From NCBI RefSeq assembly GCF_054482595.1, contig NZ_CM137008.1: 64,000 bases of DNA; one strand, 5' to 3'. Every line of letters begins with the position of its first letter. The stretch's first letter is position 1. The notes beneath the pieces are model-generated. The model did not search any database. It was given only the letters and a program-made list of their open reading frames with translations, and was not told the DNA's origin. Made by a program: the position numbers and the translations under genes. Positions 6,658 through 39,588 of the stretch are shown in pieces.

Positions 6658-7476
6658 TCAGCGCATGCTCTCCAGCAGCGTTTCTGCCATCACCCACAAT
6701 GCGCGGTTGAGCTTAATATCGGTGTCGATGCTGTGAATGGCACGGGTGTGGATACGTTTTCCTCTGGCACTGCGACCGGAAATTCCGCCTTTCAGCATAT
6801 TCTCCTGGATGGTCTGATAAGCACTCCACAGGTCCTTACCGTAATCCTCCCGGCGTCGTGGTGTCAGAATGTCGGCAGTGGTGACTGGCTGATGTTTGTC
6901 ACCATAACGGTAAGTCAGTGCCGCCTGTGCCAGCGCCTGGCGTGCCGGTGGCGGCAGGACCAGCGACTGCATGGCATCACGCTTCTCCTCTATCCGGTCA
7001 AAAACCCCCACCACCTCGTAAGCCCCTTCAATAACTTTCTCCACCACATTTCCCCGGTGCGGAACACGCACTTCCCCCAGAGACTGACCACAGACGCATC
7101 CGTTCTGGCAGACGAACCTGAAGTAACCCGGCAGCATCTGGTAGCTGGAGGTACCGTCATGAGAGTTGAGCAGAATAATTTCAGGGACATGTTCTCCGTT
7201 TATCTCTCCGGCCCGCCGCAGACGCAGCATATGTTTGGTGTATCCCCGGCGGCCCGGGTCGCGCACACGGGTCTGGCAGGCGAAGAACGGCTGAAAGCCT
7301 TCCCGCTGCAGACTTTCCAGCACGGTGATGGTGGGGATATACGTATAGCGTTCACTGCGGGAGGTATGCCGGTCTTCCCCAAAAATACCGGGTACATAGT
7401 GCATCAGTTCTTCGTGTGTCAGCGGACGGTCACGGCGTATCTGATTCGCATAACCAAAACGACTGGCTAATTGCAT
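6658..7476 (-). CDS. DUF932-family protein (YfjQ/YafZ-like)
   Basis: 272-aa ORF; family assigned by recollection of CP4-6/CP4-57 gene content. Confidence 0.75.
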   Translation of the reverse strand: MQLASRFGYANQIRRDRPLTHEELMHYVPGIFGEDRHTSRSERYTYIPTITVLESLQREGFQPFFACQTRVRDPGRRGYTKHMLRLRRAGEINGEHVPEIILLNSHDGTSSYQMLPGYFRFVCQNGCVCGQSLGEVRVPHRGNVVEKVIEGAYEVVGVFDRIEEKRDAMQSLVLPPPARQALAQAALTYRYGDKHQPVTTADILTPRRREDYGKDLWSAYQTIQENMLKGGISGRSARGKRIHTRAIHSIDTDIKLNRALWVMAETLLESMR

Positions 7477-7565
7477 ACTTTGCTCCTTATGAATGAATTA
7501 GCGGTATAAACGAAAAGGCCGCGTCTCCCGGAGAAGACGCGGCCTGATGGATGAAATGAAGACGT

Positions 7566-13228: not shown

Positions 13229-13960
13229 ATGAATCAACCAATACACAATGCTTACTGGTTATCCCGTTTTGAAAGTATTCTCAACGGTGCCCTGGCGCAA
13301 CACCGTGCCGTCTCGTTAATCCGGGTGGATTTACGTTTCCCTGAGTATATGCCTGCCACCATCATGGATACCGATTTAGATTCAGCGGTGATTTCTCGTT
13401 TTTTTGCATCCCTGAAAGCAAAAATTCAGGCTTACCAGCGGAAAAAACGACGTGCCAACAAGCGTGTGCGTGCAACCACTCTGCGTTATTTCTGGTGTCG
13501 GGAGTTTGGCAAGGAAAAAGGCAGGAAACATTATCACGTGATATTACTGCTCAACAAAGATACCTGGTGCTCGCCAGGGGATTTCACCGTTCCTTCTTCG
13601 CTGGCGACGCTGATCCAACTGGCATGGTGCAGTGCTCTGCATCTTGAGCCCTGGCAGGGTAATGGACTGGTTCACTTTTCCAGGCGGACGCCTTTCCGTA
13701 AACCGACATCATCTGATGCTCGCCCTTCTTCCGATGATACGCCTGTGCCTGGTGGATGTTCTGATACCCGGAAGGATTCTGACAAAAAATCTGGTGGATC
13801 CGCTGTTCTCTGGGTCAAGCGTGGTGATGTGGAAGCGATGCAGAAAGCCATGGAGAGAGCCCGTTATCTCGTGAAGTATGAGACGAAGCAGCATGACGGT
13901 TCTGGTCAACGTAATTATGGTTGCAGTCGTGGGCTGGGGCGTCTACTGGATGGCAGGTGA
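13229..13960 (+). CDS. YagK/YfjJ-family protein (inovirus Gp2-like family of CP4 islands)
   Basis: 243 aa; MNQPIHNAYWLSRFESILNGAL...HYHVILLLNKD; paralogous to the ORF at 19172-19738. Confidence 0.7.
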   Translation: MNQPIHNAYWLSRFESILNGALAQHRAVSLIRVDLRFPEYMPATIMDTDLDSAVISRFFASLKAKIQAYQRKKRRANKRVRATTLRYFWCREFGKEKGRKHYHVILLLNKDTWCSPGDFTVPSSLATLIQLAWCSALHLEPWQGNGLVHFSRRTPFRKPTSSDARPSSDDTPVPGGCSDTRKDSDKKSGGSAVLWVKRGDVEAMQKAMERARYLVKYETKQHDGSGQRNYGCSRGLGRLLDGR

Positions 13961-15914: not shown

Positions 15915-16794
15915 GGGAATTTCTCCCTATACTTCCAGACATCTGTTATCATTTAACCCATTACTGATCCGCTGCCGCATATATACCTGCGGCGAGCGAT
16001 AACTTAGAACTATGCTGCATTGTAATGTTCGATTGCTACTGCATGGTTATGCAATGCCGTCATTAACATCTGGCTTGGGCATGAACACGATGTAGTCACG
16101 CTTTATCGTTTTCACGAAGCTCTCTGCTATTCTGTTACTCTCCGGACTCCGCACCGCCGTGTTCTTCGATTCAAGTCCCAACATCCGAGCGAACTGGCGT
16201 GTTTCATTAGCCCGGTAGCATGAACCATTATCTGTCAGCCACTCCACTGGAGACGCCGGAAGCTCGTTGCCGAAGCGGCGTTCCACCGCTCCTGGCATGA
16301 CGTCCTGTACTGTTTCACTGTTGAAGCCGCCGGTAGTGACCGCCCAGTGCATCACCCCGGCAATAAGGGAGCGTGCGCTATCCACTTTTTGCACGTCCAT
16401 ATTCAACGGCTTCTTTAATGAGTTCATTTTCCATCGTTTTGTTCCGGGCAGGCGCTGGCGTTCTTTAATCTGCCTTATGGCAGCAGCAAGTTCAGAGGCA
16501 GGAACGATCTGTTCCCCAGCAGTCACCGCAGTAAGACTTCCCTCCTGGTATTGCTTGCGCCAGAGAAGTAACTGGCTGCTACACCATGTTGCCGGGCAAC
16601 GAGGGAGACCGTCATTCCTGGTTCAAAGCTCTTCTGAACATTAGCGATCTTTTCCTGTGCAGTATGCCGTCTGAGTTTCTCCGGTCCTGAGGCATCAATC
16701 ATCTGTTTTCCAATGACCAGTCTAAAAACTAATATTAAGATTATCACTTATTTAAGTGATATTGGTTGACTGGAGATTCAGGGGGCTAGCCTAT
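15915..16794 (-). mobile_element. IS2 remnant with internal deletion (~880 bp vs 1331 bp)
   Basis: IRR-like end ...CCCTATACTTCCAGACATCTGTTATCATTTAACCC near 15915 and IRL GGAGATTCAGGGGGCTAGCCTA at 16773-16794; InsC-like N-terminus (16523-16747) and truncated InsD-like ORF (16047-16526). Confidence 0.75.
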
Positions 16795-16922: not shown

Positions 16923-17363
16923 ATGAGCAAGAAGAAGTTTTCTGTTGAGAATGAAGATCTCTCTACTGTTCGTACATCACTTCTTAATTCCAACCTTGTC
17001 CGGAAGTTGATCATGGAAATGTCTGATGAAGACTTCAATCAAGTTAAGGATAACCTTGAAAAGGCCATTGAGCAGCGTAATGAGTTGAAGGATTCTTTGG
17101 CAATTATCAAAAAGTACATGGATGACGCAGGTGTAACGGCGGAAGATGTGTATCGTGAATTTGGCAAAAAATTACAGACGGGCAGAAAAAACGATTCAGG
17201 AGAGTCTAATAAGTACAGGTATGAGTATAACGGTCAAATAATGTACTGGAGTGGACAAGGTCGTCGGCCTTCTGTTATTGCAGAAGCAATAAAAGCCGGA
17301 GGTTCTCTTGATGATTTTCTTATATCTCAGGGCACATCATCATCTTGTTCTGATTATGAGTGA
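16923..17363 (+). CDS. H-NS-family nucleoid-associated protein (xenogeneic-silencer paralog)
   Basis: 146 aa; C-terminal YRYEYNGQIMYWSGQGRRPSVIAEAIKAGGSLDDFLI matches the H-NS DNA-binding domain signature; coiled-coil N-terminus. Confidence 0.85.
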   Translation: MSKKKFSVENEDLSTVRTSLLNSNLVRKLIMEMSDEDFNQVKDNLEKAIEQRNELKDSLAIIKKYMDDAGVTAEDVYREFGKKLQTGRKNDSGESNKYRYEYNGQIMYWSGQGRRPSVIAEAIKAGGSLDDFLISQGTSSSCSDYE

Positions 17364-19171: not shown

Positions 19172-19738
19172 ATGCCTAAATCTTACACACCAAACTGGTT
19201 TTTTACCGCTTTACTTGACAATCACATCAATCAAATGATGGCACGCTATTCCTGCCTGCGGGCCTTACGCATGGATTTCTTCTACAGGAAAGATACGCCT
19301 GATTTCTTACAACCTGATCATCGCTGGCTTGAATTGCAGTTGCGTATGCTGCTGGAGCAGGTGGAACAATTTGAAAATATCGTTGGCTTCTTCTGGGTGA
19401 TTGAATGGACGGCTGATCATGGTTTTCATGCGCATGCGGTTTTCTGGATCGATCGTCAGAGGGTTAAAAAAATATATCCCTTTGCGGAGCGGATTACGGA
19501 ATGCTGGCGGTCTATTACGCATAACAGTGGTTCGGCACACCGCTGTACATATCAGCCGCATTATACATACAACATCAACATTCCTGTGCGCCACAACGAT
19601 CCTGAAAGCATCGATAATATTCGCGGTGCCCTGCATTATCTGGCGAAAGAAGAACAAAAAGACGGGCTGTGTGCCTACGGCTGCAATGAAGTTCCTGAAC
19701 GTCCTGCTGCAGGGCGTCCTCGTAAGCCTCACTTCTGA
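19172..19738 (+). CDS. YagK/YfjJ-family protein (second paralog)
   Basis: 188 aa; MPKSYTPNWFFTALLDNHINQMMARYSCLRALRMDFFYRKD...HAHAVFWIDRQ; AT-rich upstream region 18200-19170. Confidence 0.7.
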   Translation: MPKSYTPNWFFTALLDNHINQMMARYSCLRALRMDFFYRKDTPDFLQPDHRWLELQLRMLLEQVEQFENIVGFFWVIEWTADHGFHAHAVFWIDRQRVKKIYPFAERITECWRSITHNSGSAHRCTYQPHYTYNINIPVRHNDPESIDNIRGALHYLAKEEQKDGLCAYGCNEVPERPAAGRPRKPHF

Positions 19739-19985: not shown

Positions 19986-20558
19986 ATGAATGCTATTCCT
20001 TATTTCGACTATAGCCTGGCCCCCTTCTGGCCATCTTATCAGAACAAAGTCATCGGCGTCCTTGAGCGTGCGCTGCGTGAACAGTCCTGCTCCCGGGTAC
20101 GGCGGATCCTGCTTCGTCTGCCGTGGGAACATGACAACGCCTTCAGTTGCAGAAAGACCTGGTTAGGCATGGATTTTATCGAAACCGTCAGTGCGCTGAT
20201 GAATGCAACCCCCGGACGCGACCTTTGCTGGATCCTAACCCGTCATCCTGAAAAGCCGGAATACCACGTGGTGCTGTGCGTCAGACAGGAGTATTTCGAT
20301 GGCCCTGAACTGGACCGGCTGATTCTGGATGCCTGGAGCAACGTACTGGGCTTCGCGTCACCGGGTGAAGCGGCACCGTACCAGAAACAGATAACACGGG
20401 ATGTGGTGCTGGACAGTCGTTCACCGGACTGCGAAGACATCCTCAAAGAGTTGATATGGGCGTTCAGTGATTTCGCCCGCGATCGTCGTGGTGTGCGCGA
20501 TCCGGAAGCCCGTTACCTCGCCGGTAACCCCTGGTATCCCGTAGCAGGCCAGTTCTGA
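19986..20558 (+). CDS. hypothetical island protein
   Basis: Start set at ATG 19986 (MNAIPYFDYSLAPFWPSY...); the ORF-track upstream extension has no RBS support. Confidence 0.45.
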   Translation: MNAIPYFDYSLAPFWPSYQNKVIGVLERALREQSCSRVRRILLRLPWEHDNAFSCRKTWLGMDFIETVSALMNATPGRDLCWILTRHPEKPEYHVVLCVRQEYFDGPELDRLILDAWSNVLGFASPGEAAPYQKQITRDVVLDSRSPDCEDILKELIWAFSDFARDRRGVRDPEARYLAGNPWYPVAGQF

Positions 20559-21052: not shown

Positions 21053-21691
21053 TTGTATCGTATCGTGCCGGTGTCGATGTGCGCTTTCCGTGTGTCTGCA
21101 CCGGCTGAACAAAATTCAACAGGGTTTGAAAAGGAACATTTCGTGCAAATAACCGAAGCATTAATTTCAGAGCCGGGAGACATCCGGCGTTTTATTCAGC
21201 AGGCGGTGGACCACTGGCCGCATTTGCTGGCATTTTACTTCACACTCCATTCGGCAGAAGGAAATATCAACGGGCAACAGATTCATGCATTCTGTACTTC
21301 CTTTTACCGACAGGTGCACGAACGTATTACTGAGCGTAATCACACGGCCAGTCCATCCTCGCCGGTGGTATTACGCTGGTTGCGGGAACAACATGGAGGA
21401 GCAACAATACGATGCCTGTTGCTGTTCAGCCAGGAGCTTTTCTGCCATCCGCGAGCCAGTGTGACAGTTGATGAAGAATGTTCGCAAGTGGTGGATTTAC
21501 TGCAACAGAGCTGGCAGGTGATAAGTGCTGGCGGACAATGCCGGGTGGAAAAGCGTTTTCAGGTCGCCCGGGGTGATACATCTGGCCAGTATGTTGCGTT
21601 AAAAACAGTCGCATTGTCTCTGGGGTTACCGGTTGTGACCGCCATTATCTATCGTCCGGTACAGCGCTGTACATTGATTACAGCTCAGTGA
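21053..21691 (+). CDS. hypothetical protein
   Basis: 212-aa ORF downstream of the AlpA-like gene; no recognisable motifs; start uncertain. Confidence 0.35.
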   Translation: MYRIVPVSMCAFRVSAPAEQNSTGFEKEHFVQITEALISEPGDIRRFIQQAVDHWPHLLAFYFTLHSAEGNINGQQIHAFCTSFYRQVHERITERNHTASPSSPVVLRWLREQHGGATIRCLLLFSQELFCHPRASVTVDEECSQVVDLLQQSWQVISAGGQCRVEKRFQVARGDTSGQYVALKTVALSLGLPVVTAIIYRPVQRCTLITAQ

Positions 21692-21709
21692 ATCAGCGCA
21701 GTTGTGCAG

Positions 21710-22055
21710 TCAACGATATTTTCTGGCTTTTCGTCGGTCATTCAGCATCATTAAACGGGTCTCTGCCTCTTTCTGTTCCTGTGGTGTCACTTCCCCGCAC
21801 GGCTGACCGTTCAGGTTGTAACGGGCGCCACCTGCTATTAACGCACGGTAATAGCGCGGAGACTGCACATAAGACGCCACTGCTGCATGTAATGTACCAG
21901 CGCCAAACGCCAGTTCTCGGATGGCGATATCCTGTATCAGGTCGTCAGGTATCCCCACTTTAAGTGGTTTTGTTTTTTTCCCGGTTGAATGACTCAGGCC
22001 AGAGTTCCACAAGACGAATAATGCGCTTACGGTTTTTGCTCTGGCGTTTTGTCAT
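21710..22055 (-). pseudogene. ProQ/FinO-domain protein gene, frameshifted in an A-run
   Basis: From ATG 22055 the frame reads MTKRQSKNRKRIIRLVELWPESFNREKNKTT-stop; the remainder (...PLKVGIPDDLIQDIAIRELAFGAG...) continues in another frame (ORF 21710-22012). The intact N-terminus is seen in the copy at 58862-59092. Confidence 0.5.
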
Positions 22056-22069
22056 GTCGCCACGGTGTT

Positions 22070-23252
22070 TGGATTTGCCCCTATATTTCCAGACACCTGT
22101 TATCACTTAACCCATTACTGGCTTGCTGCCGTAGATATTCCCGTGGCGAGCGATAACCCAGTGCACTATGCGGATGCCATTCGTTATAATGCTCGAACGC
22201 CTCTGCAAGGTTCTTTGCTGCCGTTAACCCGTCTGGTTTGGGCATGATACTGATGTAGTCACGCTTTATCGTTTTCACGAAGCTCTCTGCTATTCCGTTA
22301 CTCTCCGGACTCCGCACCGCCGTGTTCTTCGGTTCAAGTCCCAACATCCGGGCGAACTGGCGTGTTTCATTAGCCCGGTAGCATGAACCATTATCCGTCA
22401 GCCACTCCACTGGAGACGACGGAAGATCGTTGCCGAAGCGGCGTTCCACCGCTCCCAGCATGACGTCCTGTACTGTTTCACTGTTGAAGCCGCCGGTAGT
22501 CACCGCCCAGTGCAGTGCCTCACGATCACAGCAGTCCAGCGCGAACGTGACACGCAGTCTCTCTCCGTTATCACAGCAGAACTCGAACCCGTCAGAGCAC
22601 CATCGCTGATTGCTTTCTTTCACGGCCACTCTGCCTGTATGTGCCCGTTTCGATGGCGGTACAGTAGGTTTTCGCTCAAGCAACAGCGCATTCTGGCGCA
22701 TGATCCGGTAAACACGTTTGGCATTCACTAACGGTAGTCCTTCATTTAGGGACTGCCGCCTGAGTATCGCCCAGAACACGGCTTACCGGGGCTATTCCTT
22801 GTCCGAAGGTAACAAGGGCACATGCGCTATCCATTTTCGCGATTGCGCATACTCCACCACTTCTTTGAGGATCTAAACTTCCATGGTTTTTTACCCAGCA
22901 AGAGCTGTAACTCTTTTATTTGTTTTATAGCGGCAGGCAGTTCTGAGGCAGGAACGACACCCTCTCCTGAAGCAACAGCAGTGAGACTTCCTTCCAGAGA
23001 TTGTTTTTCCACTTAAACAACAGGCAGGGCTGAATACAACGCAAACGCGCCACATGTGACACCGCCATGCCAGGCTCCATTGTCTGCTGAATAATGCCAA
23101 TTTTTTCCTGAGGAGTTTTACGTTTACGAAGCTCCAGCCCCGGCAAAGTTCCAGTCATCTCAAAATTAGAACCAGTGTCAGACATATATCCAAGCCTGTC
23201 TCTTATTTTAAGATACATCCACTATCTGGCGTTTCAAGGGGCTGGTCCAGCT
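22070..23252 (-). mobile_element. IS2-like (IS3-family) element, degenerate
   Basis: IS2 IRR TGGATTTGCCCCTATATTTCCAGACACCTGTTATCACTTAACCC at 22070; InsD-like ORF 22081-22779 (...[47 protein letters not shown]...); orfA-like fragments to ~23218; degenerate IRL-like sequence near 23236-23252. Confidence 0.7.
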
Positions 23253-28512: not shown

Positions 28513-28563
28513 TCACCTCGCCAGAACCTACCAGAATATGATGTTGGTGGTAATGACTCCAAC

Positions 28564-29067
28564 TTATTGATAGTGTTTTATGTTCAGATAATGCCCGATG
28601 ACTTTGTCATGCAGCTCCACCGATTTTGAGAACGACAGCGACTTCCGTCCCAGCCGTGCCAGGTGCTGCCTCAGATTCAGGTTATGCCGCTCAATTCGCT
28701 GCGTATATCGCTTGCTGATTACGTGCAGCTTTCCCTTCAGGCGGGATTCATACAGCGGCCAGCCATCCGTCATCCATATCACCACGTCAAAGGGTGACAG
28801 CAGGCTCATAAGACGCCCCAGCGTCGCCATAGTGCGTTCACCGAATACGTGCGCAACAACCGTCTTCCGGAGACTGTCATACGCGTAAAACAGCCAGCGC
28901 TGGCGCGATTTAGCCCCGACATAGCCCCACTGTTCGTCCATTTCCGCGCAGACGATGACGTCACTGCCCGGTTGTATGCGCGAGGTTACCGACTGCGGCC
29001 TGAGTTTTTTAAGTGACGTAAAATCGTGTTGAGGCCAACGCCCATAATGCGGGCTGTTGCCCGGCAT
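28564..29067 (-). CDS. insB: IS1 InsB
   Basis: 167-aa ORF; the functional transposase would be the InsAB' frameshift fusion. Confidence 0.9.
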
Positions 29068-29261
29068 CCAACGCCATTCATGGCCATATCAATGATTTTC
29101 TGGTGCGTACCGGGTTGAGAAGCGGTGTAAGTGAACTGCAGTTGCCATGTTTTACGGCAGTGAGAGCAGAGATAGCGCTGATGTCCGGCGGTGCTTTTGC
29201 CGTTACGCACCACCCCGTCAGTAGCTGAACAGGAGGGACAGCTGATAGAAACAGAAGCCAC
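28986..29261 (-). CDS. insA: IS1 InsA
   Basis: 91 aa; [40 protein letters not shown]... Confidence 0.9.
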
Positions 29262-29396
29262 TGGAGCACCTCAAAAACACCATCATACACTAAATCAGTA
29301 AGTTGGCAGCATCACCCGCAGGACTTAGGTGCCGTAGCCTTAGTACCAAAAGGCGATACCTCTGGCGCTGACCGTAAAGGTCTTTTCAATCGTTCA

Positions 29397-29843
29397 TTGT
29401 TCAAATATGACCAGGAAAAAGATATTTATATTTGCCCGATGGGTGAAGAACTTCAGAACCGATTTACGATGGTTGAGGATGGTTTAGAACAGCAAATGTA
29501 CTTTAACAATATTGCCTGTCGCGATTGCAGTCAGCGGTCAAGGTGCACCACATCAAAACGCGATCCGAGGCGTATAAAGCGCTGGGTTCATGAAGCAGAA
29601 ATGGAAGACATGCAAGCCAGGCTTAATGCATCGCCACAAACAGCTGTCGTGCGAAAGCAAACGGTAGAGCATCCGTTCGGGACAATTAAGATGTGGATGG
29701 GAGCGACTCACTTCCTGACGCAACGGTTTAAAAACGTCAGCACAGAAATCAGTCTGCATGTACTGGCTTATAACCTGAAGAGGATGATGTCCATCTGGGG
29801 GGCCGAAGGATTGGCCATTAAGCTGCGAGAACGATGCAGCTAG
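29397..29843 (+). pseudogene. DDE transposase C-terminal fragment (IS5/IS1182-like), truncated at the IS1 junction
   Basis: ...HPFGTIKMWMGATHFLTQRFKNVSTEISLHVLAYNLKRMMSI is a typical DDE transposase C-terminus; the N-terminal half is absent. Confidence 0.5.
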
Positions 29844-30167
29844 CGGCAGTGGCCGCTTTAACTCCTAATAACTGGCCATTAGTACTCCATATCAAGCCAC
29901 AAAGTCTCGTTTTGCCTCAACATACAAATCACTGCGAATACAGCCCATATCAGGAATATCTTGCATCCCTGCTGGTGTTAGTCCTCAGATACTGAAAAAA
30001 CCGAGTTTTTACACAGCCTGGGCACGAAGCGGACCGCCTGAAGCGCAGCAAGGTCTGCTTTGAACTCACAGCGAAGAGCAGAATATACCGGGAGATATCC
30101 TCTTTCATGAGTTGGCAGCCTCTCTCGCATAATATCGAAAACACGGGAGAGGCCGTTACAGCCGCCG

Positions 30168-30932
30168 TTAGTTAGCACGGAATTCCTGGACGGTATCCCA
30201 TGCCACCTGCTGCAGCGCTTTGGCGGTTTGCTCGGTCATATCGCTGTCGGCAGGCAGTGCGCCGCCTATCGGTGACTGGTCATACAGCGTGGCGAACAGC
30301 ACGCTGGCAGCCAGATAGGTTCCCGCCAGCGAGGGGTGATTTCCATCGCTATGATACAGATTGATTTCAGGATGCGTCTTAATTGCGTTACTGAAGGCCA
30401 GCCCGACCGGCGCGACGTATCCCCCGGTTTTACTGGCTATATTCAGATAGGCTTTCTCCAGTTTTTCAGTTTGCTCGGGTTTATCCTTGCTGGCCCAGGT
30501 CATAAAATAAACCACACGCGAGCCCTCTTTGTGAGCCATATCTGCCATCTTGACGGCGGACTCCGTGAAATAGTGACGCGAATCTTTTTTAGCGGAAAAA
30601 GGCTCTGTTGAATTCCCCTGAAATATCACCACGTCCCATTTTTGCAGCGTATTCTGGAATTCAAGATTCGGAAGGTGCCAGCCTAAACGTCCAGAAGAAA
30701 TGGTGATTCCCCGGAACATATAGTCTTTAGCGCCATTCGGTAACAGCGAACGGCTGAGATCGCGCAGTCGGGTATTTATATTATTGTTATAATGTGTATA
30801 TGAATTTCCGTAGAGCGCAATGGATTTATTGACTCCGCTCAGTTTATCCTGCGGTTTGGCTGCAATAATCGTATCGGCCTGCGCGTCGACCATCAGCGCC
30901 AGTCCTGCCAGCAACAACATGATTTTTTTCAT
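30168..30932 (-). CDS. secreted SGNH/GDSL-type hydrolase (esterase-like)
   Basis: Start set at ATG 30932 (MKKIMLLLAGLALMVDAQA signal); family assignment tentative. Confidence 0.5.
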   Translation of the reverse strand: MKKIMLLLAGLALMVDAQADTIIAAKPQDKLSGVNKSIALYGNSYTHYNNNINTRLRDLSRSLLPNGAKDYMFRGITISSGRLGWHLPNLEFQNTLQKWDVVIFQGNSTEPFSAKKDSRHYFTESAVKMADMAHKEGSRVVYFMTWASKDKPEQTEKLEKAYLNIASKTGGYVAPVGLAFSNAIKTHPEINLYHSDGNHPSLAGTYLAASVLFATLYDQSPIGGALPADSDMTEQTAKALQQVAWDTVQEFRAN

Positions 30933-30942
30933 TATTCTTTCC

Positions 30943-31992
30943 TCAGAAGTCGTAGCGCAACCCGACGATAATGGCGTCATCGTTGACCTTCTCGTTTTTA
31001 CTGGCCAGCGTATTAAGGTAAGTTGCTGATAAATACACATTCTTAGCTAAGGTTAGCTGCGATTCAATTCGCCAGCCCTCGTGTTCGTACACATCCTCGT
31101 CGGCTTCATCCAGGATGCTGTACCCGCCAAGCACTTTGAATTCTTTGGTGAATTGATAGGAGGCAACGGAATCGAAACTCGTATAGTCATTGTCAGATTT
31201 ATTGTCTCTTTCTATGGAGACCTTACCCGCCGTTACGGCTAATGACAAATCGCTATAATCGAACTGCAGCCCGCCCATTACCTGGCTGTGCTTCTTGCGG
31301 CCGTCGGTGGTTTTTACGCCGTCCTGACGGTTATATTGACTGACGGCAATCGCCGGTGTGATTTTTACGTCGCCGAATTTAATCATCTTGCGATAACTGG
31401 CCATCATGCCGTTATCAAGTGCATCGTTGTCGCTATTGCCATTTCCAAAAACGTAAGCCAGTTGCACCTGATGCCCGCTAAAATCACCGTTCCATTGCAG
31501 GGTGCCATCCTGACGGTTAAATTGGTAAGAATCGTCAATAGTGGTAATACCGTAGTTATATACGTTTGGCGTAAAGTTTTTATATTTGTCCGTCATGCGC
31601 ATGACCTGATATAACGGGTTTTTAGTACGACCGGCAATCAGCTCGCCATATTTAGCATGAGAAAGCCCCAGATAGGCGTAACGGGCGTCGAGATCTTTAT
31701 CTTTGGTTTTATTATCATCTTTTTCAGTACGAACCTGCCACTCCAGGCGACCGACAAGTTTAGTATCTTCCAGTAAAGGGAGGTCGCGGGTTAAATAAAT
31801 CCCTAAGCGCCCCCCTATTTGGCTACGGGAGTCATCATTTGCGAATGATGCTTCTCCATTCGCTAACTGCCACTCAATACGCCCGTAAATATCCAGCGTG
31901 GTGGCTTTATCCTCATAAACGCTAATCGCCAGCGCTGACGTGCTAGCCCCAGATAAGGCAATGAATAATAATGTTTTGGCTTTAATGCTCAT
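30943..31992 (-). CDS. outer-membrane beta-barrel porin
   Basis: 349 aa, signal peptide (MSIKAKTLLFIALSGASTSALA), alternating hydrophobic pattern, C-terminal ...GLRYDF with terminal Phe. Confidence 0.6.
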   Translation of the reverse strand: MSIKAKTLLFIALSGASTSALAISVYEDKATTLDIYGRIEWQLANGEASFANDDSRSQIGGRLGIYLTRDLPLLEDTKLVGRLEWQVRTEKDDNKTKDKDLDARYAYLGLSHAKYGELIAGRTKNPLYQVMRMTDKYKNFTPNVYNYGITTIDDSYQFNRQDGTLQWNGDFSGHQVQLAYVFGNGNSDNDALDNGMMASYRKMIKFGDVKITPAIAVSQYNRQDGVKTTDGRKKHSQVMGGLQFDYSDLSLAVTAGKVSIERDNKSDNDYTSFDSVASYQFTKEFKVLGGYSILDEADEDVYEHEGWRIESQLTLAKNVYLSATYLNTLASKNEKVNDDAIIVGLRYDF

Positions 31993-32410
31993 GCTGTTCT
32001 TCCCCTTTAAAAAATAAATATGTTCGCCCTTGATGCAGGATTAAATAGTTGTTATCAGGCGCCATTAATTTTTAGTTACATTAATGCAGAGCGAATACGG
32101 GAATTGCGTTTTCTCATAATAAAATGTGATTTTACGCACATAAAATAGGGCTTAATGGCTGGCGTTGTTATTTGTGAAGATTTCATTGAAAATAAATAAT
32201 AGCGATTTAATTGATTCTCTCCGAACTGAGATATAAATGGCGAATTTATGTTAATCTCATCACGTTTTTCATATTGTGATCCCCGGAACATATGGGAAAT
32301 GCATATTCCCCTGTTTACGCAGTGAGAATTGCTCCAGAATACTCGTTACGCAGTTAAATTTGATTTGAATGATATGCTGTTATCAGCGACGTACGTCACA
32401 GGAGTTTATA

Positions 32411-33781
32411 ATGCCAGGCAGTCAAAGTTCGGTATTTGATTCAGAATTGTATTCCTCTCTCTTCACGCAGCCGGAGATGAAATCAATCTGGTCCGATGAT
32501 AATCTTCTTCGCTGTTGGCTGACCTTTGAAGCAACCATCGCGCATGTGCAGACTGAGTTAGGTATTATTCCCCCTGAAGCCGCCGCGGAAATTTCCGCCG
32601 CCTGCCAGACGCTGAAAATAGACTGGCCGCGCCTCGCCAGGGAAACGCGTTCCGTCGGTATGGCGATTAAGCCTCTGGTTGATCAAATTGCCGATGCGGG
32701 TTCCCCTTTGGTCAAAAAATACCTTCACTGGGGCTGCACGACTCAGGATCTGCTGGATACCGCCCTGGCCATGCGCATGAAGCAAACCCTGCAATTACTG
32801 CGCAGACAGTTGGTGCAGTTGGGCGAAACGTTGAAAGCTATGGCGCTTGAGCACCGACATACGGTGATGGTCGCCAGAACGAATTCCGTCGATGCTTCCG
32901 CCACGACGTGGGGGCTACACGTCAGCAGCTATCTGTCCGAGCTAACCCGCCACCTTCAGCGCCTGGATCGCCTCTACCCGGCAGCGACTACCGGCCTGTT
33001 TGGTGGCGCGGTCGGCAACCTGGCCTCCGTCGGCAGCCAGGGAATGGCGATACGTAAGCAATTAATGGGCGCGTTAGGGTTGTCATGCCCTGTCGGTATG
33101 AGCAATGCCAGTCAGGATCATGTAGTCGAAGTGGTGCAGTTTTTTGCCCTGGTGCATGGCACGCTGTGTCGCATGGCCAACGACGTTGAAACGCAGGGCC
33201 GCACGTCCGTGGGCGAGTTGCGTGAAGGCGAAGGCGGTGGAGGATCCAGTACGATGCCACACAAGACGAATCCCCGCGCGAGCAATATGATCCAGACGCT
33301 TTCCCGCATGGGCTGGAACTATGCCTCTGGTGCAACCAGCCTTCTCGATCAGTGTGACGTGCGTGCTGCCTCCGCCCGCGTACTCAACTGGACGCTGGTA
33401 CCGGAGTCGGCGCTGGCCTTGTCGGCCAGCCTTGAACGTGCTGTCCGGTTAATTACGCATCTGGTGGTGGACAAAGAGAAGATGCGCAGCAACTTCGCCG
33501 CTTCAAAGAACTTCATTATGTCGGAATCCGTCACCATGGTATTGGCTGAGAAAATCGGGCGTGGTGCCGCTTACGATCTGATGAAAGCGTTATTAAAAGA
33601 CGCAGACGGCTCTAAAGACCTGTTGCAGTGCATGCTGGAAAATCAGACCGTTATTGACGCGCTAACTGAGTCGGAGATTGTTGCTGCTTGCGATCCATTG
33701 TCTTATCTGGGCTGCAATGACGCGCTGATCGAAGAAACCGTCATAGCCTTCGACGATTACATTCATGTCCGGACGGCGTAG
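32411..33781 (+). CDS. fumarate-lyase-superfamily enzyme (adenylosuccinate-lyase / 3-carboxymuconate-cycloisomerase-like)
   Basis: ATG 32411 preceded by AGGAG; signature GSSTMPHKTNP (GSSxMPxKxN); substrate not inferable from sequence. Confidence 0.75.
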   Translation: MPGSQSSVFDSELYSSLFTQPEMKSIWSDDNLLRCWLTFEATIAHVQTELGIIPPEAAAEISAACQTLKIDWPRLARETRSVGMAIKPLVDQIADAGSPLVKKYLHWGCTTQDLLDTALAMRMKQTLQLLRRQLVQLGETLKAMALEHRHTVMVARTNSVDASATTWGLHVSSYLSELTRHLQRLDRLYPAATTGLFGGAVGNLASVGSQGMAIRKQLMGALGLSCPVGMSNASQDHVVEVVQFFALVHGTLCRMANDVETQGRTSVGELREGEGGGGSSTMPHKTNPRASNMIQTLSRMGWNYASGATSLLDQCDVRAASARVLNWTLVPESALALSASLERAVRLITHLVVDKEKMRSNFAASKNFIMSESVTMVLAEKIGRGAAYDLMKALLKDADGSKDLLQCMLENQTVIDALTESEIVAACDPLSYLGCNDALIEETVIAFDDYIHVRTA

Positions 33782-33834
33782 TCCAGAGCCATTCGCTTCC
33801 TGCCGAAAGCAGGTGTGCCGACAGGAAGCGGTCA

Positions 33835-34722
33835 TTATCCAGGAAGAGGTGAAAAGGTTTCAAAAAAGACAAACAGTTCCTCCAGTTGCTCGAAATTGCC
33901 CTCGCCTTCGCCTTTTTCATAGGCCAGATGCAACACCAGCTCAATAAAAAAGAAACCTACGATGCGGCTTTTGAATACGGATTGCGTATCGCTCGGCAAC
34001 ACAAACTGCAGATTACAAAATTTGCCGTACGGGTTGGACTCCGAGTTAGTAATCAGCACTACCGTCGCGCCTTTTTTACAACACCATTCGGTAACGCGAA
34101 TCACTACCCGGTTAAAACGGTAGTAGGAGAAAACGATCAGCACGTCCTGATCCGTAACGGTCAGCAATGACTTCGGCAACTCCCCAACGTCCATAGAAAG
34201 CAATGTAACCCGATCGCGGAAATATTTAATCAGCGTAGTAAAATGTTTCGCCATCGCATAGGAAGACGCGGGACCGATTACGTATATATGTCGGTTGGTA
34301 TTCAAAATAATGTCGATAAATTTATCCAGACTGTCAATATTGATATTATCTTTAAAATTCTCGAACAAGGTCGTAACATTCTTATTAAATTCGGAAACAA
34401 TTTGTTCCGTGGTAATCTTTTCTTTTACCTGAATGCGTGATGCCAGCTCAAACGGCGGCACCATTTTTTGCAGTGTCAGCGTATTTTCCAATGCCCGACG
34501 GAAGTCAGCGTAGCCGATAAATCCCAGCTTATTTAAAAAACGCCCAACCGTTGCTTTACTCACCATTGCATTGCGGGCAATGTCGATGATGCCGTGAAAA
34601 GGGAGTTCATTAAAATGTTCACGCATATACGCGTCAAGACGGTGTTCTGACTCGGTTAGTGAACATAACAGCACGGTTTTTGAAATATAGTCCTCTAATG
34701 TTAAAGGGGTATTTTTTTTCAT
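33835..34722 (-). CDS. RpiR/MurR-family transcriptional regulator (HTH + SIS domain)
   Basis: 295 aa; N-terminal HTH (...IIDIARNAMVSKATVGRFLNKLGFIGY...), C-terminal SIS-like region; divergent from the transporter gene. Confidence 0.7.
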   Translation of the reverse strand: MKKNTPLTLEDYISKTVLLCSLTESEHRLDAYMREHFNELPFHGIIDIARNAMVSKATVGRFLNKLGFIGYADFRRALENTLTLQKMVPPFELASRIQVKEKITTEQIVSEFNKNVTTLFENFKDNINIDSLDKFIDIILNTNRHIYVIGPASSYAMAKHFTTLIKYFRDRVTLLSMDVGELPKSLLTVTDQDVLIVFSYYRFNRVVIRVTEWCCKKGATVVLITNSESNPYGKFCNLQFVLPSDTQSVFKSRIVGFFFIELVLHLAYEKGEGEGNFEQLEELFVFFETFSPLPG

Positions 34723-35005
34723 AATTGTCGTCCTTACACACTACGGATAAAAAGATACTATATTCAGTATAGAGAATAACCTTATCACATAATAATGCTA
34801 TGCTATAGCCTTCCGTAAAGTGATTGACATATTTCCTGTTATGAGATCATGCGCACAAACCCCAGCGGGAAAAGCAATTTCTCATAGCTCACATTACCCT
34901 GATTCGATCATGATTTCATTACGGCATCAGTCTCTGAATTTATAGAGAATTAGGCGATCTAAATATAACTAGCCGTCATATATAGGAAAACAAAAGGACG
35001 ATCTC

Positions 35006-36382
35006 ATGACCGCATTTGTAATCGCAATCGTGATCACTATCATTGCAGCATGGTTAATCATCAAGAACTTCCAACCTCAGACGGTATTGCTGCTGGCTGG
35101 TTTGTCTTTACTGACCATTACTGCTGTCTTCTATCCTGATAATAGCATTCTCTACGGTAAGGCTAAATCAACCGGTTCCACCTGGCTGGATATCTTTACG
35201 TTTGCCAAAAATTCACTCTCCACACAGATCGCCGGTATCGGTTTGATCATCATGGCCGCGGGCGGCTTTGCCAGTTATATGGATCATATCAAAGCCTCCA
35301 ATGCAATGGTGAACGTCTGCATTCGTCCCCTGCAAATCATCAAGGCGCCCTACGTGATCCTGGCTGTGGGGTATATTTGCGCACAGTTGCTGCACGTCGC
35401 GATTTCCAGCGCCGCCGGGCTGGCGATGATGTTATTAGTGACGTTCTTCCCGGTGTTGGTACGACTGGGTGTCAGTAAAGCAGCGGCGGCGGCGATGATC
35501 GGTCTGTGCGCCTTTATGGACTTAGGCCCGGCGGTCGGCACGGCCAACCTGGCGGCTAAACATGCCGGTATGGAAGCCGCCGTTTACTTTGCGCACTATC
35601 AGATGCCGGTGGCTGTTGCCGTTATGTTGGTAGTGTCGGTGCTGATTTTCTTTACCGCCAAATATTATGACAAGAAAGATGGTCACGTGATGACCAGCCA
35701 GGTGGCGGACGACACGACGCCTCAGAGTGAGGATAGCGAAAAAGTGCCGGGGCTGTATGCTTTCCTGCCTGTATTCCCTGTGATTCTGGTGCTGGTCTTT
35801 AGCCCGTTGGTCATCTCCACCATTAAAATCGACGTAGTTACCGCCATGATTGTCGGCACAATACTGGCGTTCGTCTGCGAACTGTTCGTTAAACGCGACT
35901 TCCGTGCCTGCTGTAAAGGTGTACAGGTATTTTTTAAAGGAATGGGCGGGATGTTTACCAGCGTGGTTTCATTGTTAGTGTGTGCGGATATCTACGCGCA
36001 GGGAATGCAAAAAATCGGCGCGGTGGATTACCTGTTGGAGATGGTGCAGAACGCGGGCTTTGGCTTTGCCAGCATGACCGTGGTGATGACGCTGCTGGTA
36101 GGTATAACCGCTGTACTGACGGGCTCCGGGGTTGCGGCATTTTTCTCTTTCTCCGGCATGGCGCCTGCTATCGCCACTAAATTTGGCGAAAGCGCTGTAC
36201 ATATGATTCTGCCGATGCAACTGATGGCTGGAATGGGACGTTCCATTTCTCCCGTCGCAGGGATCATCATTGCGGTCAGCAAAGCCGGTGAATGTTCACC
36301 GTTCATGATAGTGCGCAGGACCTTAATTCCGGCGCTCGGCGGCATGCTTACCATGTTGCTGGCTAACTACCTGTTGTTCTGA
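35006..36382 (+). CDS. DcuC-family (C4-dicarboxylate-type) membrane transporter
   Basis: 458-aa polytopic membrane protein; size and composition resemble DcuC as I recall it. Confidence 0.55.
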   Translation: MTAFVIAIVITIIAAWLIIKNFQPQTVLLLAGLSLLTITAVFYPDNSILYGKAKSTGSTWLDIFTFAKNSLSTQIAGIGLIIMAAGGFASYMDHIKASNAMVNVCIRPLQIIKAPYVILAVGYICAQLLHVAISSAAGLAMMLLVTFFPVLVRLGVSKAAAAAMIGLCAFMDLGPAVGTANLAAKHAGMEAAVYFAHYQMPVAVAVMLVVSVLIFFTAKYYDKKDGHVMTSQVADDTTPQSEDSEKVPGLYAFLPVFPVILVLVFSPLVISTIKIDVVTAMIVGTILAFVCELFVKRDFRACCKGVQVFFKGMGGMFTSVVSLLVCADIYAQGMQKIGAVDYLLEMVQNAGFGFASMTVVMTLLVGITAVLTGSGVAAFFSFSGMAPAIATKFGESAVHMILPMQLMAGMGRSISPVAGIIIAVSKAGECSPFMIVRRTLIPALGGMLTMLLANYLLF

Positions 36383-36469
36383 AGGACGTGTCGTCAGTGC
36401 GATGCCATTAAATCCAGAGAGCCAGGCGAGAGTACTTTGTTGTCAACATCAGTTAGCCGGACGTAAGTT

Positions 36470-38164
36470 ATGACCCACGAAATCACAGACAATTTACTTT
36501 ATATCCCTTATGCAGGCCCGGTATTACTGGAATCCCCGCTGCTGAACAAAGGCAGCGGGTTTACTGAAACAGAACGCGCAATGTTTAACCTGAGCGGGCT
36601 GTTGCCCGCAGCGGTTGAGACGATTGAAGAGCAGTCGCTGCGGGCCTATCAGCAATTCCTGGATATCAAGTCGGATATTGCCCGTCATATCTTTCTGCGC
36701 AATATTCAGGATACCAACGAGACGCTGTTTTATCACCTTGTGAGCAAGCACCTGGTGGAAATGATGCCGATTATTTATACCCCGGTAGTCGGACATGCGT
36801 GTGAACACTTTTCCGACATCTATCGCCGCGCCAGGGGATTATTCATCGCCTGGCCGGACCGGCATATGATCGACGAAATATTGCATAACGCCACAAAGCA
36901 GAATATTTCGGTGATTGTCGTCACTGACGGGGAGCGGATCCTCGGCCTGGGCGATCAGGGAATTGGCGGCATGGGGATTCCTATCGGCAAACTTTCGTTG
37001 TACACCGCCTGCGGTGGTATTAAGCCGTCGCATACGCTGCCAATCTTATTGGATGCGGGAACGAACAATTCCCAATTGCTCAATGACCCTTTGTATATGG
37101 GTTGGCGTCATCCGCGCATCACCGGCGACGCATATTTTGAGTTCGTCGAGATGTTTATCCGCGCGGTTAAGCGCCGTTGGCCGGACGTGCTATTACAGTT
37201 CGAAGATTTTGCCCAACAGACGGCGATGCCGCTGCTGACCCGCTATCGTGATGAGATCTGCTGTTTTAATGATGATATCCAGGGTACCGCAGCGGTGACT
37301 TTGGGATGCCTGATGGCGGCAAGCCAGGCCTCCCAACGTCGGTTATGTGACCAAACGGTAGTCTTCCTGGGCGCGGGATCGGCCGGATGTGGCATTGCCG
37401 AACATATCGTCACGCAGATGGTGGCTGAAGGGTTGACCGATGAGCAGGCCCGTTCACGCATTTTCATGGTGGATCGCTTTGGCCTGCTTACGGACGATCA
37501 AACTAATCAGGCTCCTTTCCAGTCACCGCTGGCGCAGCCGCGGTCGCGTTTGGCGAGCTGGGGCGGTCAGCAGGAGGCGTACTCGCTGATGGACGTGGTA
37601 AGCCAGGCTAAACCGTCCGTTCTGATTGGCGTCAGCGGGCAGCCAGGACTATTCAGCGAAGCGGTGATCGGGGAAATGTATCGTCACTGTTCGCAACCGA
37701 TAGTTATGCCACTTTCCAACCCAACCTCGCGCGCAGAGGCACGGCCGGAAGATATTCTGCGCTGGACCGATGGTAACGCGTTAATCGCCACCGGCAGCCC
37801 GTTCGAGCCGGTAAGCCACGGGGGAAAATTGTATCCTGTTGCACAATGCAATAATGTTTATGTCTTCCCTGGTGTGGGTCTCGGCGTGATGGTTAGCCGT
37901 GCCACACGCGTCACGGATAACATGATGATGGCGGCCAGCCGCACGCTGGCAAGTTGTTCGCCGCTGGTGCGCGACGGGCGTGGTCCGCTGTTGCCCAGTA
38001 TTAATGACATCCGGCAGGTGACGCAGGCCATCGCCCTTGATGTTGCTCTGGCTGCTCAACGTGATGGCGTCGCCGTAAATATCCCGCAGGAAACCTTGCA
38101 ACATAACATTTCGAGCGGATTCTGGGAGCCGCAGTATCTTCAGTACAAGCGCACCTCATTCTGA
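36470..38164 (+). CDS. NAD-dependent malic enzyme (MaeA/SfcA paralog)
   Basis: 564 aa; ...[22 protein letters not shown]...[34 protein letters not shown]...[13 protein letters not shown]... tracks E. coli MaeA closely but is clearly diverged. Confidence 0.85.
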
Positions 38165-38280
38165 TAAGCAGTCTGTAGCGGGAAGATCTTGATACCGTTG
38201 GTAACGGCGGTATCAATTCCGTAAAAGCCGCATGGCCCGTATCTGTTCCGAGTGTATCCGGTGTTATGGTAGCGCAATCG

Positions 38281-38700
38281 TCACCGGGCATAGCGACCCG
38301 GCAGATTCATACACAGTTTCGTCTCCTCGGCATAGAAATGCGGCAGGTTCCGCTGATAGTCAGACGGCGTTACACCACAAAGCATTTTGAAATCTTTGCT
38401 GAAATGGGCCTGATCATGGAAATCGAGGTCACAAGCAAGGGTGCGCAAATCGACCACGCCGTGATGGATGCGCCGGCACGCTTCATTTACTCTGAGAATA
38501 CGGACAAACGATTTCCAGGAAACGCCAATCCTCTCCTGGCAGAAGCGGTTAATGTGCCGGGCGCTGTATGACGTCATCTCGGACAAGCTATTAAGACGAA
38601 TGCCCCCGTTCAGCGGGGAAGCATGCGTCAGTACCTGACGCAGCAGCGGTTTTTCCTCCAACACAGCGAAGGTGGAAGTTGAGAATAACTCCTTAAGCAA
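38281..38700 (-). pseudogene. AraC-family regulator, HTH domain only (sensor domain cut off by IS1 copy B)
   Basis: 139-aa ORF with an AraC-type HTH; an in-frame stop lies between it and the IS1 end at 38821. Confidence 0.55.
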
Positions 38701-38820
38701 AGGTAGCCCGCAGAAGTATACTGAACGCTATAAAGAATGTAGTGGAGATGCTGGTTGTGAACAGCAGATCCGTAAGGATATGGCGAAAGAATCGGCGGAA
38801 AATGTTCTTAAGTTGAAGTC

Positions 38821-39588
38821 GGTGATGCTGCCAACTTACTGATTTAGTGTATGATGGTGTTTTTGAGGTGCTCCAGTGGCTTCTGTTTCTATCAGCTGTC
38901 CCTCCTGTTCAGCTACTGACGGGGTGGTGCGTAACGGCAAAAGCACCGCCGGACATCAGCGCTATCTCTGCTCTCACTGCCGTAAAACATGGCAACTGCA
39001 GTTCACTTACACCGCTTCTCAACCCGGTACGCACCAGAAAATCATTGATATGGCCATGAATGGCGTTGGATGCCGGGCAACAGCCCGCATTATGGGCGTT
39101 GGCCTCAACACGATTTTACGTCACTTAAAAAACTCAGGCCGCAGTCGGTAACCTCGCGCATACAACCGGGCAGTGACGTCATCGTCTGCGCGGAAATGGA
39201 CGAACAGTGGGGCTATGTCGGGGCTAAATCGCGCCAGCGCTGGCTGTTTTACGCGTATGACAGGCTCCGGAAGACGGTTGTTGCGCACGTATTCGGTGAA
39301 CGCACTATGGCGACGCTGGGGCGTCTTATGAGGCTGCTGTCACCCTTTGACGTGGTGATATGGATGACGGATGGCTGGCCGCTGTATGAATCCCGCCTGA
39401 AGGGAAAGCTGCACGTAATCAGCAAGCGATATACGCAGCGAATTGAGCGGCATAACCTGAATCTGAGGCAGCACCTGGCACGGCTGGGACGGAAGTCGCT
39501 GTCGTTCTCAAAATCGGTGGAGCTGCATGACAAAGTCATCGGGCATTATCTGAACATAAAACACTATCAATAAGTTGGAGTCATTACC
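38821..39588 (+). mobile_element. IS1 (complete, 768 bp), copy B, inverted relative to copy A
   Basis: Starts GGTGATGCTGCCAACTTACTGAT at 38821 and ends ...ATCAATAAGTTGGAGTCATTACC at 39588; insA 38876-39151, insB 39070-39573. InsB differs from copy A at two residues (S65R, S88R), so the copies are not identical. Confidence 0.95.

Follow-up and report, generated by a model that had tools for sequence, protein, structure and literature searches.

Two loci in the 64,000-nucleotide stretch of DNA analysed here (referred to as the window) are very probably the independently inactivated remnants of one island-borne family of FinO-domain RNA-binding genes, lying in a mosaic, IS-riddled island region of E. 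coli. Copy 1 belongs to a YagK/YfjJ-AlpA-UCP030791 module and has suffered at least three lesions. In this copy a 2-nt deletion would have uncoupled the N-terminal extension, slippage from a run of six A residues (A6) to seven (A7) would have put codons 1-27 out of frame with the remaining domain, and a later IS2 insertion inside the ancestral ORF would have removed the extension together with the native promoter region. Copy 2 lies at the end of a dnd island and probably derives from an allele that already had an out-of-frame extension and a Gly-to-Glu change. A joint across 11 nt of microhomology would then have cut it after codon 59 and linked it to a polysaccharide-lyase gene's 3' end, which lies immediately upstream of an autotransporter gene. 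Neither locus appears able to encode a complete FinO domain, and both copies are probably non-functional. This reading is built on the observed anatomy of the loci, on allele frequencies, on an order of events in which A7 came before IS2, and on the microhomology joint itself. Both remnants are already flagged as pseudogenes by RefSeq/PGAP, and in that respect they are known. The features are collected in the table.

Table. Features of the two ProQ/FinO-family loci and their surroundings (positions in the window)
Feature	Position	Strand	Evidence
Island-backbone gene, 182 aa, UCP030791-type, WP_001167422.1, convergent, directly downstream of copy 1	21143..21691	(+)	annotations
Copy 1, ProQ/FinO-family pseudogene (A7 allele)	21710..22055	(-)	ORFs, translations, Pfam PF04352, PGAP
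A7 homopolymer, T7 on the + strand	21973..21979	(-)	sequence, alignments, 84-mer/83-mer matches, exact-pattern checks in fetched loci
Remnant of the N-terminal extension, 14 nt (..TPWRH codons)	22056..22069	(-)	alignments to AR_0089, copy 2 and long-form proteins; translations
IS2 right half, IRR terminus at 22070	22070..22725	(-)	blastn vs K-12 IS2A, PGAP
Autotransporter gene, 895 aa, now adjoining copy 2	56187..58874	(-)	ORF
Foreign tail of the copy-2 ORF (..VILLNYLKINRMQPWIK*), made up of the 3' end of the lyase-8 gene and its spacer to the autotransporter gene	58862..58914	(-)	
11-nt microhomology CGCGGCAGTAG at the illegitimate joint, ProQ codons ~56-59 / polysaccharide lyase 8 3' end	58915..58925	(-)	three-way alignment
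Copy 2, first 59 codons of the ProQ/FinO domain (P0019-type allele)	58915..59092	(-)	ORF, Pfam, alignments, PGAP
57-aa ORF, detached N-terminal extension	59089..59262	(-)	ORF list, translations, long-form alignment
dndB, start of the dndBCDE phosphorothioation island	59725..60810	(+)	PGAP

Both copies are on the minus strand. In a local alignment copy 1 (21879-22069) and copy 2 (58917-59108) are identical in 172 of 193 columns (89.1%), with 3 gap columns, and the differences amount to 18 substitutions and 2 indels. When copy 1 was compared with the window by blastn, 58917-59108 was found at E=3.9e-68 and the next-ranked matches had E values of about 1, so that the similarity between the copies is far above chance level. 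A repeat search reported two abutting direct-repeat families, 21879-21981 / 58917-59019 (87%) and 21975-22055 / 59012-59092 (94%). The spacings, 37038 and 37037, differ by one and place a 1-nt indel between the families; copy 1 has an extra A relative to copy 2 within the A-run. A preliminary description of this DNA had noted about 180 bp in common, in the same orientation and 37 kb apart. The repeat search, the alignment and blastn all bear this out, and the repeat is real, with a true span slightly wider than the 21890-22066 and 58925-59105 given there.

On the minus strand copy 1 reads ATG(22055)...AAC CGG GAA AAA AAC AAA ACC ACT TAA. Translation from this ATG gives MTKRQSKNRKRIIRLVELWPESFNREKNKTT*, that is 31 codons and a TAA at 21960-21962, right after GGGAAAAAAACAAAACCACTTAA (frame A, from 22055 to 21960). 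What remains of the domain, with Gly34, Tyr68 and Arg78, is encoded in frame B (21710..21972, part of the ORF 21710..22012(-)), whose protein ..KKTKPLKVGIPDD...RKARKYR* ends at 21710. At the position of the A-run copy 2 has GGGAAAAACCCCAACC and the frame is kept. The run in copy 1 is one A longer than in the in-frame A6 allele, and copy 1 is therefore frameshifted, as had been proposed from the letters alone; the sequence, the ORFs and the alignment agree on the additional nucleotide. With one A removed, copy 1 encodes 114 aa and matches Pfam PF04352 over profile positions 5-107 of 109 (E=2e-21, 76.5 bits, gathering cut-off 27 bits). The 100-codon C-terminal ORF is free of further lesions and reaches 62.9 bits by itself. 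As it stands, copy 1 has no uninterrupted ORF for the whole domain, owing to the stop that A7 brings about after 31 codons. In strain EC11 RefSeq/PGAP annotates exactly the coordinates of window 21710..22055 as 'ProQ/FINO family protein, frameshifted'.

A search of a protein collection returned 214 relatives in two classes, a 114-aa class that consists of the domain only and a class of 165-180 aa from E. coli, Salmonella and Citrobacter. The 114-aa class includes P0001, 99% identical to copy 1 once repaired, and P0019, which represents the copy-2 allele in intact form. The long forms have a conserved N-terminal extension, M..LTINRKP..QDKT..QKP..TPWRH, that runs directly into MTKRQRKNRKR. Since the extension continues into this motif, the ATG at 22055, which had been taken as the start of the gene, is an internal Met of a longer ancestral gene with homologues of about 168-180 aa. 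The same point indicates that it is IS2 that cut off the N-terminal extension of copy 1. Of the extension's coding sequence copy 1 keeps the last 14 nt alone, and a 2-nt deletion is found just before its ATG, relative to copy 2. P0016 is an intact 168-aa protein, 90% identical, and is encoded in a backbone of the copy-1 type with ProQ, the convergent 182-aa UCP030791 protein, AlpA and H-NS. For this reason the long form (~168-180 aa) is the ancestral state for the copy-1 island type. Judged by the homologues, the ancestral protein would have had a basic N-terminal extension, a FinO domain and a Lys/Arg-rich tail in a total of ~168-180 aa. The domain-only forms of 114 aa are annotated as intact, and thus loss of the extension alone may not inactivate the protein. 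Family members are present in 865 of 5,426 complete E. coli genomes (~16%), with up to 5 copies per genome. More distant long forms, at about 70% identity, are found in an integrase-AlpA-DUF4222-DUF927/D5 primase-SSB-ProQ-PerC module.

Profile searches against the PDB matched the N-terminal domain of ProQ (1e-13), FinO, RocC and NMB1681. In RocC the pocket residues Gly52, Tyr87 and Arg97 recognise the RNA 3' end, and Y87F or R97M largely abolishes function (PMC9674577). Alignments to RocC and to the ProQ N-terminal domain map these residues to Gly34, Tyr68 and Arg78 of the repaired copy 1. All three are kept in copy 1, in a frame other than that of helix 1 and of the first 27 residues, which include the conserved RLVELWPESF. 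Copy 2 is without the equivalents of Tyr68 and Arg78 as a result of its truncation, and it has Glu at the near-invariant turn Gly34, as does P0019. By these sequence comparisons the protein is a bona fide FinO-domain protein, yet neither FinO nor ProQ by the curated NCBI models; assignment to either was rejected, both curated NCBIfam cut-offs being widely missed. A search of the whole window with Rfam for a partner sRNA or antisense RNA gave an ALIL pseudoknot in an IS3-family element (54663-54779) as the sole match and none at either copy.

The element next to copy 1 is IS2 by its terminal inverted repeat and its near-identity to the reference. Window 22070-22725 is 98.6% identical to positions 676-1331 of K-12 IS2A (blastn), and 14 nt (22056-22069) separate its right terminus from the ATG of copy 1. 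An IS2-like inverted repeat 14 bp upstream of the start codon had been described before. The terminus and the distance are as stated; IS2 is not merely upstream of the gene, however, it interrupts the ancestral ORF. Beyond 22725 the element is fused to divergent IS2-like sequence, of which 22808-23110 is just 70% identical to IS2. A complete IS2 of 1331 bp is not present: the left part is 70% identical, the IRL is absent and PGAP labels 22081..23158 as 'IS3 family transposase, frameshifted'. An inverted-repeat search for a complete IS2 gave no terminal IR pair, and blastn gave no IS2 IRL. The element is thus a chimeric, frameshifted IS3-family remnant that reaches to about 23160. In AR_0089, E371 and SMS-3-5 A7 is present while the upstream sequence is native and IS2 is missing, therefore A7 arose earlier than the IS2 insertion. 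The insertion itself is limited to a small lineage that contains the window.

The truncation of copy 2 at its 3' end, also noted in the preliminary description, is evident from its ORF and from Pfam. The ORF 58862..59092 reads MTKRQRKNRKRINRLVELWPELFNREKPQPLKVEIPDDLIQDIAIRELAFGAGALRAAV and then unrelated sequence, and it matches PF04352 at profile positions 4-54 of 109 alone (27.5 bits), the first half of the profile. As far as 58915 copy 2 is 100% identical to the intact allele of E. coli 55989, O157:H7 86-24 and others; after codon 59 it diverges from the family, and an ORF for the whole domain is not present. PGAP describes 58916..59262 as 'frameshifted; missing C-terminus'. The 57-aa ORF and the domain are in different frames, the stop of the former overlapping the ATG of the latter (ATATGA); in 55989 the 57-aa ORF is annotated as a separate hypothetical protein. 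Both the 57-aa ORF and copy 2 belong to the end of the dnd island. Over window 58915-64000 the identity to the 55989 dnd island is 99.96%, with the match ending at 58915. Between dndB and WP_001167422.1, 55989 has the 57-aa ORF together with an intact ProQ/FinO gene for 114 aa.

The sequence on the other side of the joint has a different origin. The autotransporter gene is natively preceded by a polysaccharide-lyase-8 / GH88 cluster. The sequence of 58300-58914 is found in 62 genomes; it follows the polysaccharide lyase 8 gene in 48 of them and the ProQ remnant in the other 14. When the window junction, the intact 55989 gene and the lyase-autotransporter locus of SLK172 were aligned, CGCGGCAGTAG was present in both parental sequences exactly at the switch point. 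The truncation of copy 2 is therefore an illegitimate, microhomology-mediated joint to the 3' end of the lyase gene. The native island of O157:H16 Santai (YagK-hyp-AlpA-RpiB...GH88-DUF2264-lyase8-autotransporter-...-sodC-IS66-ArsR-...-large autotransporter) is collinear with the window from 58914 down to ~39595, so that all that natively precedes the final lyase codons was lost or replaced. The precursor of the joint could have been a deletion within one chromosome or composite island, or the joint could have formed on acquiring foreign DNA; the precursor arrangement was not found.

The two copies thus lie in unlike surroundings. To the left the region has a CP4-like module (cbtA/yeeU, antirestriction, DUF932, GTPase), followed by several YagK/YfjJ-AlpA backbone units. 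The middle consists of ~37 kb of cargo broken by IS1, IS2-like, IS3, IS66, IS91, IS110 and ISL3 elements, and to the right is the dndBCDE/dptFGH phosphorothioation system. No tRNA genes were found in the window. Strain EC11 matches the copy-to-copy spacing of the window exactly. The gene directly downstream of copy 1, WP_001167422.1, also flanks the intact ProQ/FinO gene in 55989.

How did one stretch of chromosome come to hold two copies? The preliminary description spoke of a duplicated gene, and two ProQ/FinO-domain copies are indeed present. Had one gene been duplicated recently within this genome and diverged in place, the shared orientation and the ~190 bp in common would be expected. 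The copies are just 89% identical, however, and each has its own exact counterpart among the alleles widespread in other E. coli, with 100% identity over 370 bp for copy 1 and over 386 bp for copy 2. The matching alleles sit at separate loci and in different island contexts, and the flanks are different modules, the YagK/AlpA backbone in one case and the dnd island in the other. On the identity and the matching alleles a recent duplication was ruled out and is given hardly any credence; the copies are instead two diverged paralogous alleles from different island modules of the E. coli chromosome. A second alternative, rather unlikely, is that the copies are halves of one resident gene. Homology-facilitated illegitimate recombination would have brought in a foreign block of ~37 kb with its own ProQ allele, by way of a homologous crossover close to the gene's 3' end and the microhomology joint at codon 59. 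That 55989 has one intact gene between dndB and WP_001167422.1, flanks that the window divides between the copies, fits this proposal, as does the 11-nt microhomology at the other end. The proposal also draws on a switch in identity: 21170-21700 is 100% identical to 55989 and the ProQ part of copy 1 is ~90% identical, the change falling between 21718 and 21752. The same mosaic, an A7-type ProQ gene with the 55989-type downstream gene, is already found in E371 without IS2 or the 37-kb block, and so the crossover need not belong to the event that inserted the block; as proof of a one-step homology-facilitated insertion the switch is weakened. The rest of the copy-1 backbone is mosaic as well, just 92.7% identical to that of 55989 overall, and a simple microhomology deletion in a composite island accounts for the joint equally well.

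The state of the A-run raises two further alternatives to inactivation by an inherited mutation. Homopolymer indels are a frequent assembly artefact, and an in-frame A6 allele exists, so a sequencing or assembly error in a gene that is intact in the organism has to be weighed; the preliminary description itself named such an error as what would undo its frameshift. Exact queries centred on the run, 84 nt for A7 and 83 nt for A6, were compared with 5,426 complete E. coli genomes. The A7 84-mer was the best match in 347 of them, from many laboratories and hosts, and the A6 83-mer was found in 2. The 370-bp copy-1 locus including A7 is 100% identical in 15 other complete assemblies, A7 was confirmed base by base in six fetched loci (W2-5, AR_0089, EC11, E371, EC052 and SMS-3-5, the last a finished genome of 2008), and PGAP calls the locus frameshifted in every genome examined. 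A6 was confirmed in APEC IMT5155, where PGAP annotates an intact 114-aa protein. The allele counts and the six verified loci exclude a sequencing error, which has next to no chance of being correct. A7 is an inherited, real mutation, and the annotation as a pseudogene should stand and not be 'corrected'. Its probable origin can be read from the other alleles, which have ...GAA AAA CCC AAA CC.. (REKPKP) where the copy-1 lineage has ACA (Thr) in place of CCC. With this lineage-specific change the stretch of A residues grew to A6 and became likelier to slip, and A6 would then have become A7 by replication slippage.

A real A7 might still be of use to the cell. A programmed +1 frameshift, transcriptional slippage or a phase-variable tract could make expression of the FinO-domain protein low or switchable, possibly with transcription from IS2; slippage, a +1 shift or switching from A7 to A6 would restore the 114-aa protein at low frequency. 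The tract is prone to slippage, the 100-codon ORF downstream is otherwise intact, the allele is frequent (347 genomes), A6 and A7 occur on near-identical backgrounds and even together in CP033635.1, and the IS2 transposase points towards the gene. The comparative evidence argues against such a function. No diverged homologue is out of frame: the long forms of E. coli, Salmonella and Citrobacter all read through ...REKPKPLKV... in frame with a run of A5 or shorter, and A7 is restricted to one allele lineage, in which the A-run stems from the CCC to ACA change. A +1 shift would be required at a site without any recognised +1 stimulatory context. The same allele is damaged elsewhere too, by the 2-nt deletion and by the truncation through IS2, and a ratio of A6 to A7 of 2:347 is unlike that of a rapidly switching tract. 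Promoter and terminator scans around both copies gave counts not above shuffled expectation, and no promoter-like site was found at the IS2 junction. That the A7 allele is alive is thus very improbable. If it were, its prevalence in 347 genomes would mean that selection keeps the expression of an island-encoded RNA chaperone within tight limits, and copy 1 would here be transcribed from the adjacent IS2. The commonness of A7 and the lesion-free C-terminal ORF fit a recent spread of the allele and are also compatible with residual function, for example low-level slippage. Independent decay of both copies remains the preferred reading.

It had also been suggested that the repeat pair could mediate recombination between modules. 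This is possible in principle, the longest exact blocks common to the copies being 34, 26 and 19 bp. RecA-dependent recombination in E. coli has a minimal processing segment not far from 34 bp, and with 11% divergence the frequency would be lower still. The predicted deletion chimera, with the 5' part of copy 2 and the 3' part of copy 1 joined across the 34-bp block (that crossover position only), had no match of at least 99% in the 5,426 complete E. coli genomes. E371 and EC052, which have copy 1 and no copy-2 junction, were considered as deletion products and rejected: E371 has another island context, and EC052 is of the same lineage with copy 1 intact. The window also has two inverted IS1 copies of 768 bp with 100% identity, and these are far better substrates for recombination than the ProQ/FinO copies. 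In comparison with EC11 the 9.5 kb that the IS1 copies enclose is inverted, so IS-mediated rearrangement is a demonstrably active process in this region.

The two loci provide a clean and well-resolved example of the decay of an island accessory gene by homopolymer slippage, IS insertion and a microhomology joint. As remnants they represent ordinary gene decay and are of little importance in themselves. The only forward lead is the intact, uncharacterised subfamily, and it is independent of the two remnants in the window. An intact gene for a FinO-domain protein of 168-180 aa recurs in the backbone of enterobacterial islands and in the int-AlpA-primase-SSB-ProQ-PerC module, and no description of this island-borne subfamily was found in the literature searched. 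The examples of FinO, FopA and PcnR suggest that the intact protein may act as an RNA chaperone and govern the replication or induction of the element that encodes it.

Among the known systems, FinO, the fertility inhibition protein of F-like plasmids (PDB 1DVO), is the closest in architecture. It likewise has a FinO domain after a basic N-terminal extension, its size is 186 aa as compared with 168-180 aa here, and both are products of mobile elements. Among the NCBIfam models FinO gives the best match (PDB match 2.4e-12), and the extension of the family aligns to its N-terminal region. However, P0016 and P0019 score 62.1 and 63.8 bits against the FinO model NF010317, whose curated cut-off is 136, and they fall outside that subfamily. 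Unlike FinO, which is encoded in the tra operon, the family is chromosomal and island-borne, and the window copies are broken; no FinP-like antisense RNA was found by Rfam at either locus. ProQ, the global RNA chaperone of enterobacteria (PDB 5NB9), belongs to the same FinO-domain fold family and is the best PDB match, with the Gly/Tyr/Arg pocket conserved. The intact relatives reach 50.6 and 42 bits against the ProQ model NF003434 (cut-off 127) over profile positions 4-114 of 205, so that they are not ProQ by this model either. Unlike ProQ, the family has no linker and no C-terminal Tudor-like domain, and it is accessory and horizontally spread.

NMB1681 of N. meningitidis, RocC/Lpp1663 of Legionella, and FopA and PcnR of IncI plasmids are also small FinO-domain proteins with short extensions. 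Their relationship to the family is distant, and the context here is an island backbone or the integrase-AlpA-primase-SSB-ProQ-PerC module. The family resembles FopA and PcnR in being encoded on mobile elements, and several small FinO-domain proteins of mobile elements control replication or transfer of their own element (PMC9977716). Erosion of chromosomally integrated FinO/ProQ copies was described in the same 2023 review of the family (PMC9977716), with examples that are plasmid-derived in Salmonella or come from Rickettsia; the E. coli island subfamily is not among them. With a frameshift, an IS insertion and a truncation between them, the two loci of the window are textbook cases of such eroded chromosomal copies.

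The allele behind copy 2, the 3'-truncated ProQ/FinO remnant at 58915-59092, is P0019 (WP_000166952.1), which lies in the E. coli strain 55989 at 7209-7553 of locus L007. In its 114-aa "intact" form P0019 is widespread, being found on 408 contigs. In the LKVEI motif of P0019 a Glu occupies the position of a near-invariant turn Gly (Gly52 of Legionella RocC), whereas Gly is found there in all other family members, in ProQ and in RocC. The N-terminal extension of P0019 is also detached as an ORF of its own of 57 aa. P0019 carries the annotation of a normal gene, yet its function may already be impaired.

The A7-type allele represented by copy 1, the frameshifted pseudogene, has at least one extra chromosomal copy outside the window in genomes of the window's lineage. 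In these genomes it occurs at two to three places per record, one of those outside the window being 882,971-883,054 of the chromosome of strain W2-5, and the ProQ/FinO family reaches up to five copies per genome. A terminator-like hairpin antisense to copy 1 overlaps the A/T run, on the same strand as the UCP030791 gene that converges on copy 1. This hairpin is probably fortuitous, because terminator-like hairpins are no more numerous than shuffling predicts and copy 2 does not conserve it.

Features of the window (nt, window coordinates)
Feature	Position	Strand	Remarks
Gene annotated "phosphorothioated DNA-binding restriction endonuclease"	950-1822	+	annotation
YagK/YfjJ ("inovirus Gp2"-type) backbone genes, with associated AlpA and UCP030791 genes	13229-13960, 19172-19738, 19986-20558, 21143-21691		several
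Second IS2-like remnant	15919-16793		87-89% identical to K-12 IS2
H-NS paralogue	17013-17363		
Terminator-like hairpin	21955-21979	+	CCACTTTAAGTGG then TTTTGTTTTTTT; antisense to copy 1
IS1 copies	28549-29316 and 38821-39588	inverted	768 bp each, 100% identical
Segment bracketed by the IS1 pair	29317-38820		9.5 kb
ALIL pseudoknot	54663-54779	+	Rfam, 116 bits; inside an IS3-family transposase gene with programmed frameshift
dndBCDE phosphorothioate-modification cluster	59725-64000	+	dptH beyond the window

The clustering in 9 kb of several YagK/YfjJ backbone genes and the AlpA and UCP030791 genes associated with them, together with an H-NS paralogue, suggests that related islands accreted serially at one site. 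The second IS2-like remnant has lost IS2 positions ~450-886, and its two remaining parts meet at 16350/16351. The ALIL pseudoknot is the expected frameshift stimulator of its transposase gene, and ordinary. The segment between the IS1 copies carries genes for a porin, a fumarase/aspartase-family enzyme, a MurR/RpiR regulator, DcuC and NAD-malic enzyme. Its orientation in the window is opposite to that in strain EC11, so two near-identical genomes are polymorphic for an IS1-mediated inversion of this segment.

The annotated phosphorothioate (PT)-dependent nuclease gene lies ~58 kb from dndBCDE in the same island region. Having a PT-writing system and such a nuclease side by side raises the question of compatibility or sequence specificity.

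Outside the window, long-form relatives of the ProQ/FinO gene, which carry the N-terminal extension, are intact (175-178 aa, ~70% identical) on Salmonella, Citrobacter and E. coli contigs (L011-L017). They sit in a conserved module of integrase, AlpA, (Phage_ASH), DUF4222, DUF927 or a D5-type primase/helicase, SSB, ProQ/FinO and PerC. Nothing in the literature searched describes what the FinO-domain gene does. The module resembles the core that handles replication and regulation in a satellite-like integrative element.
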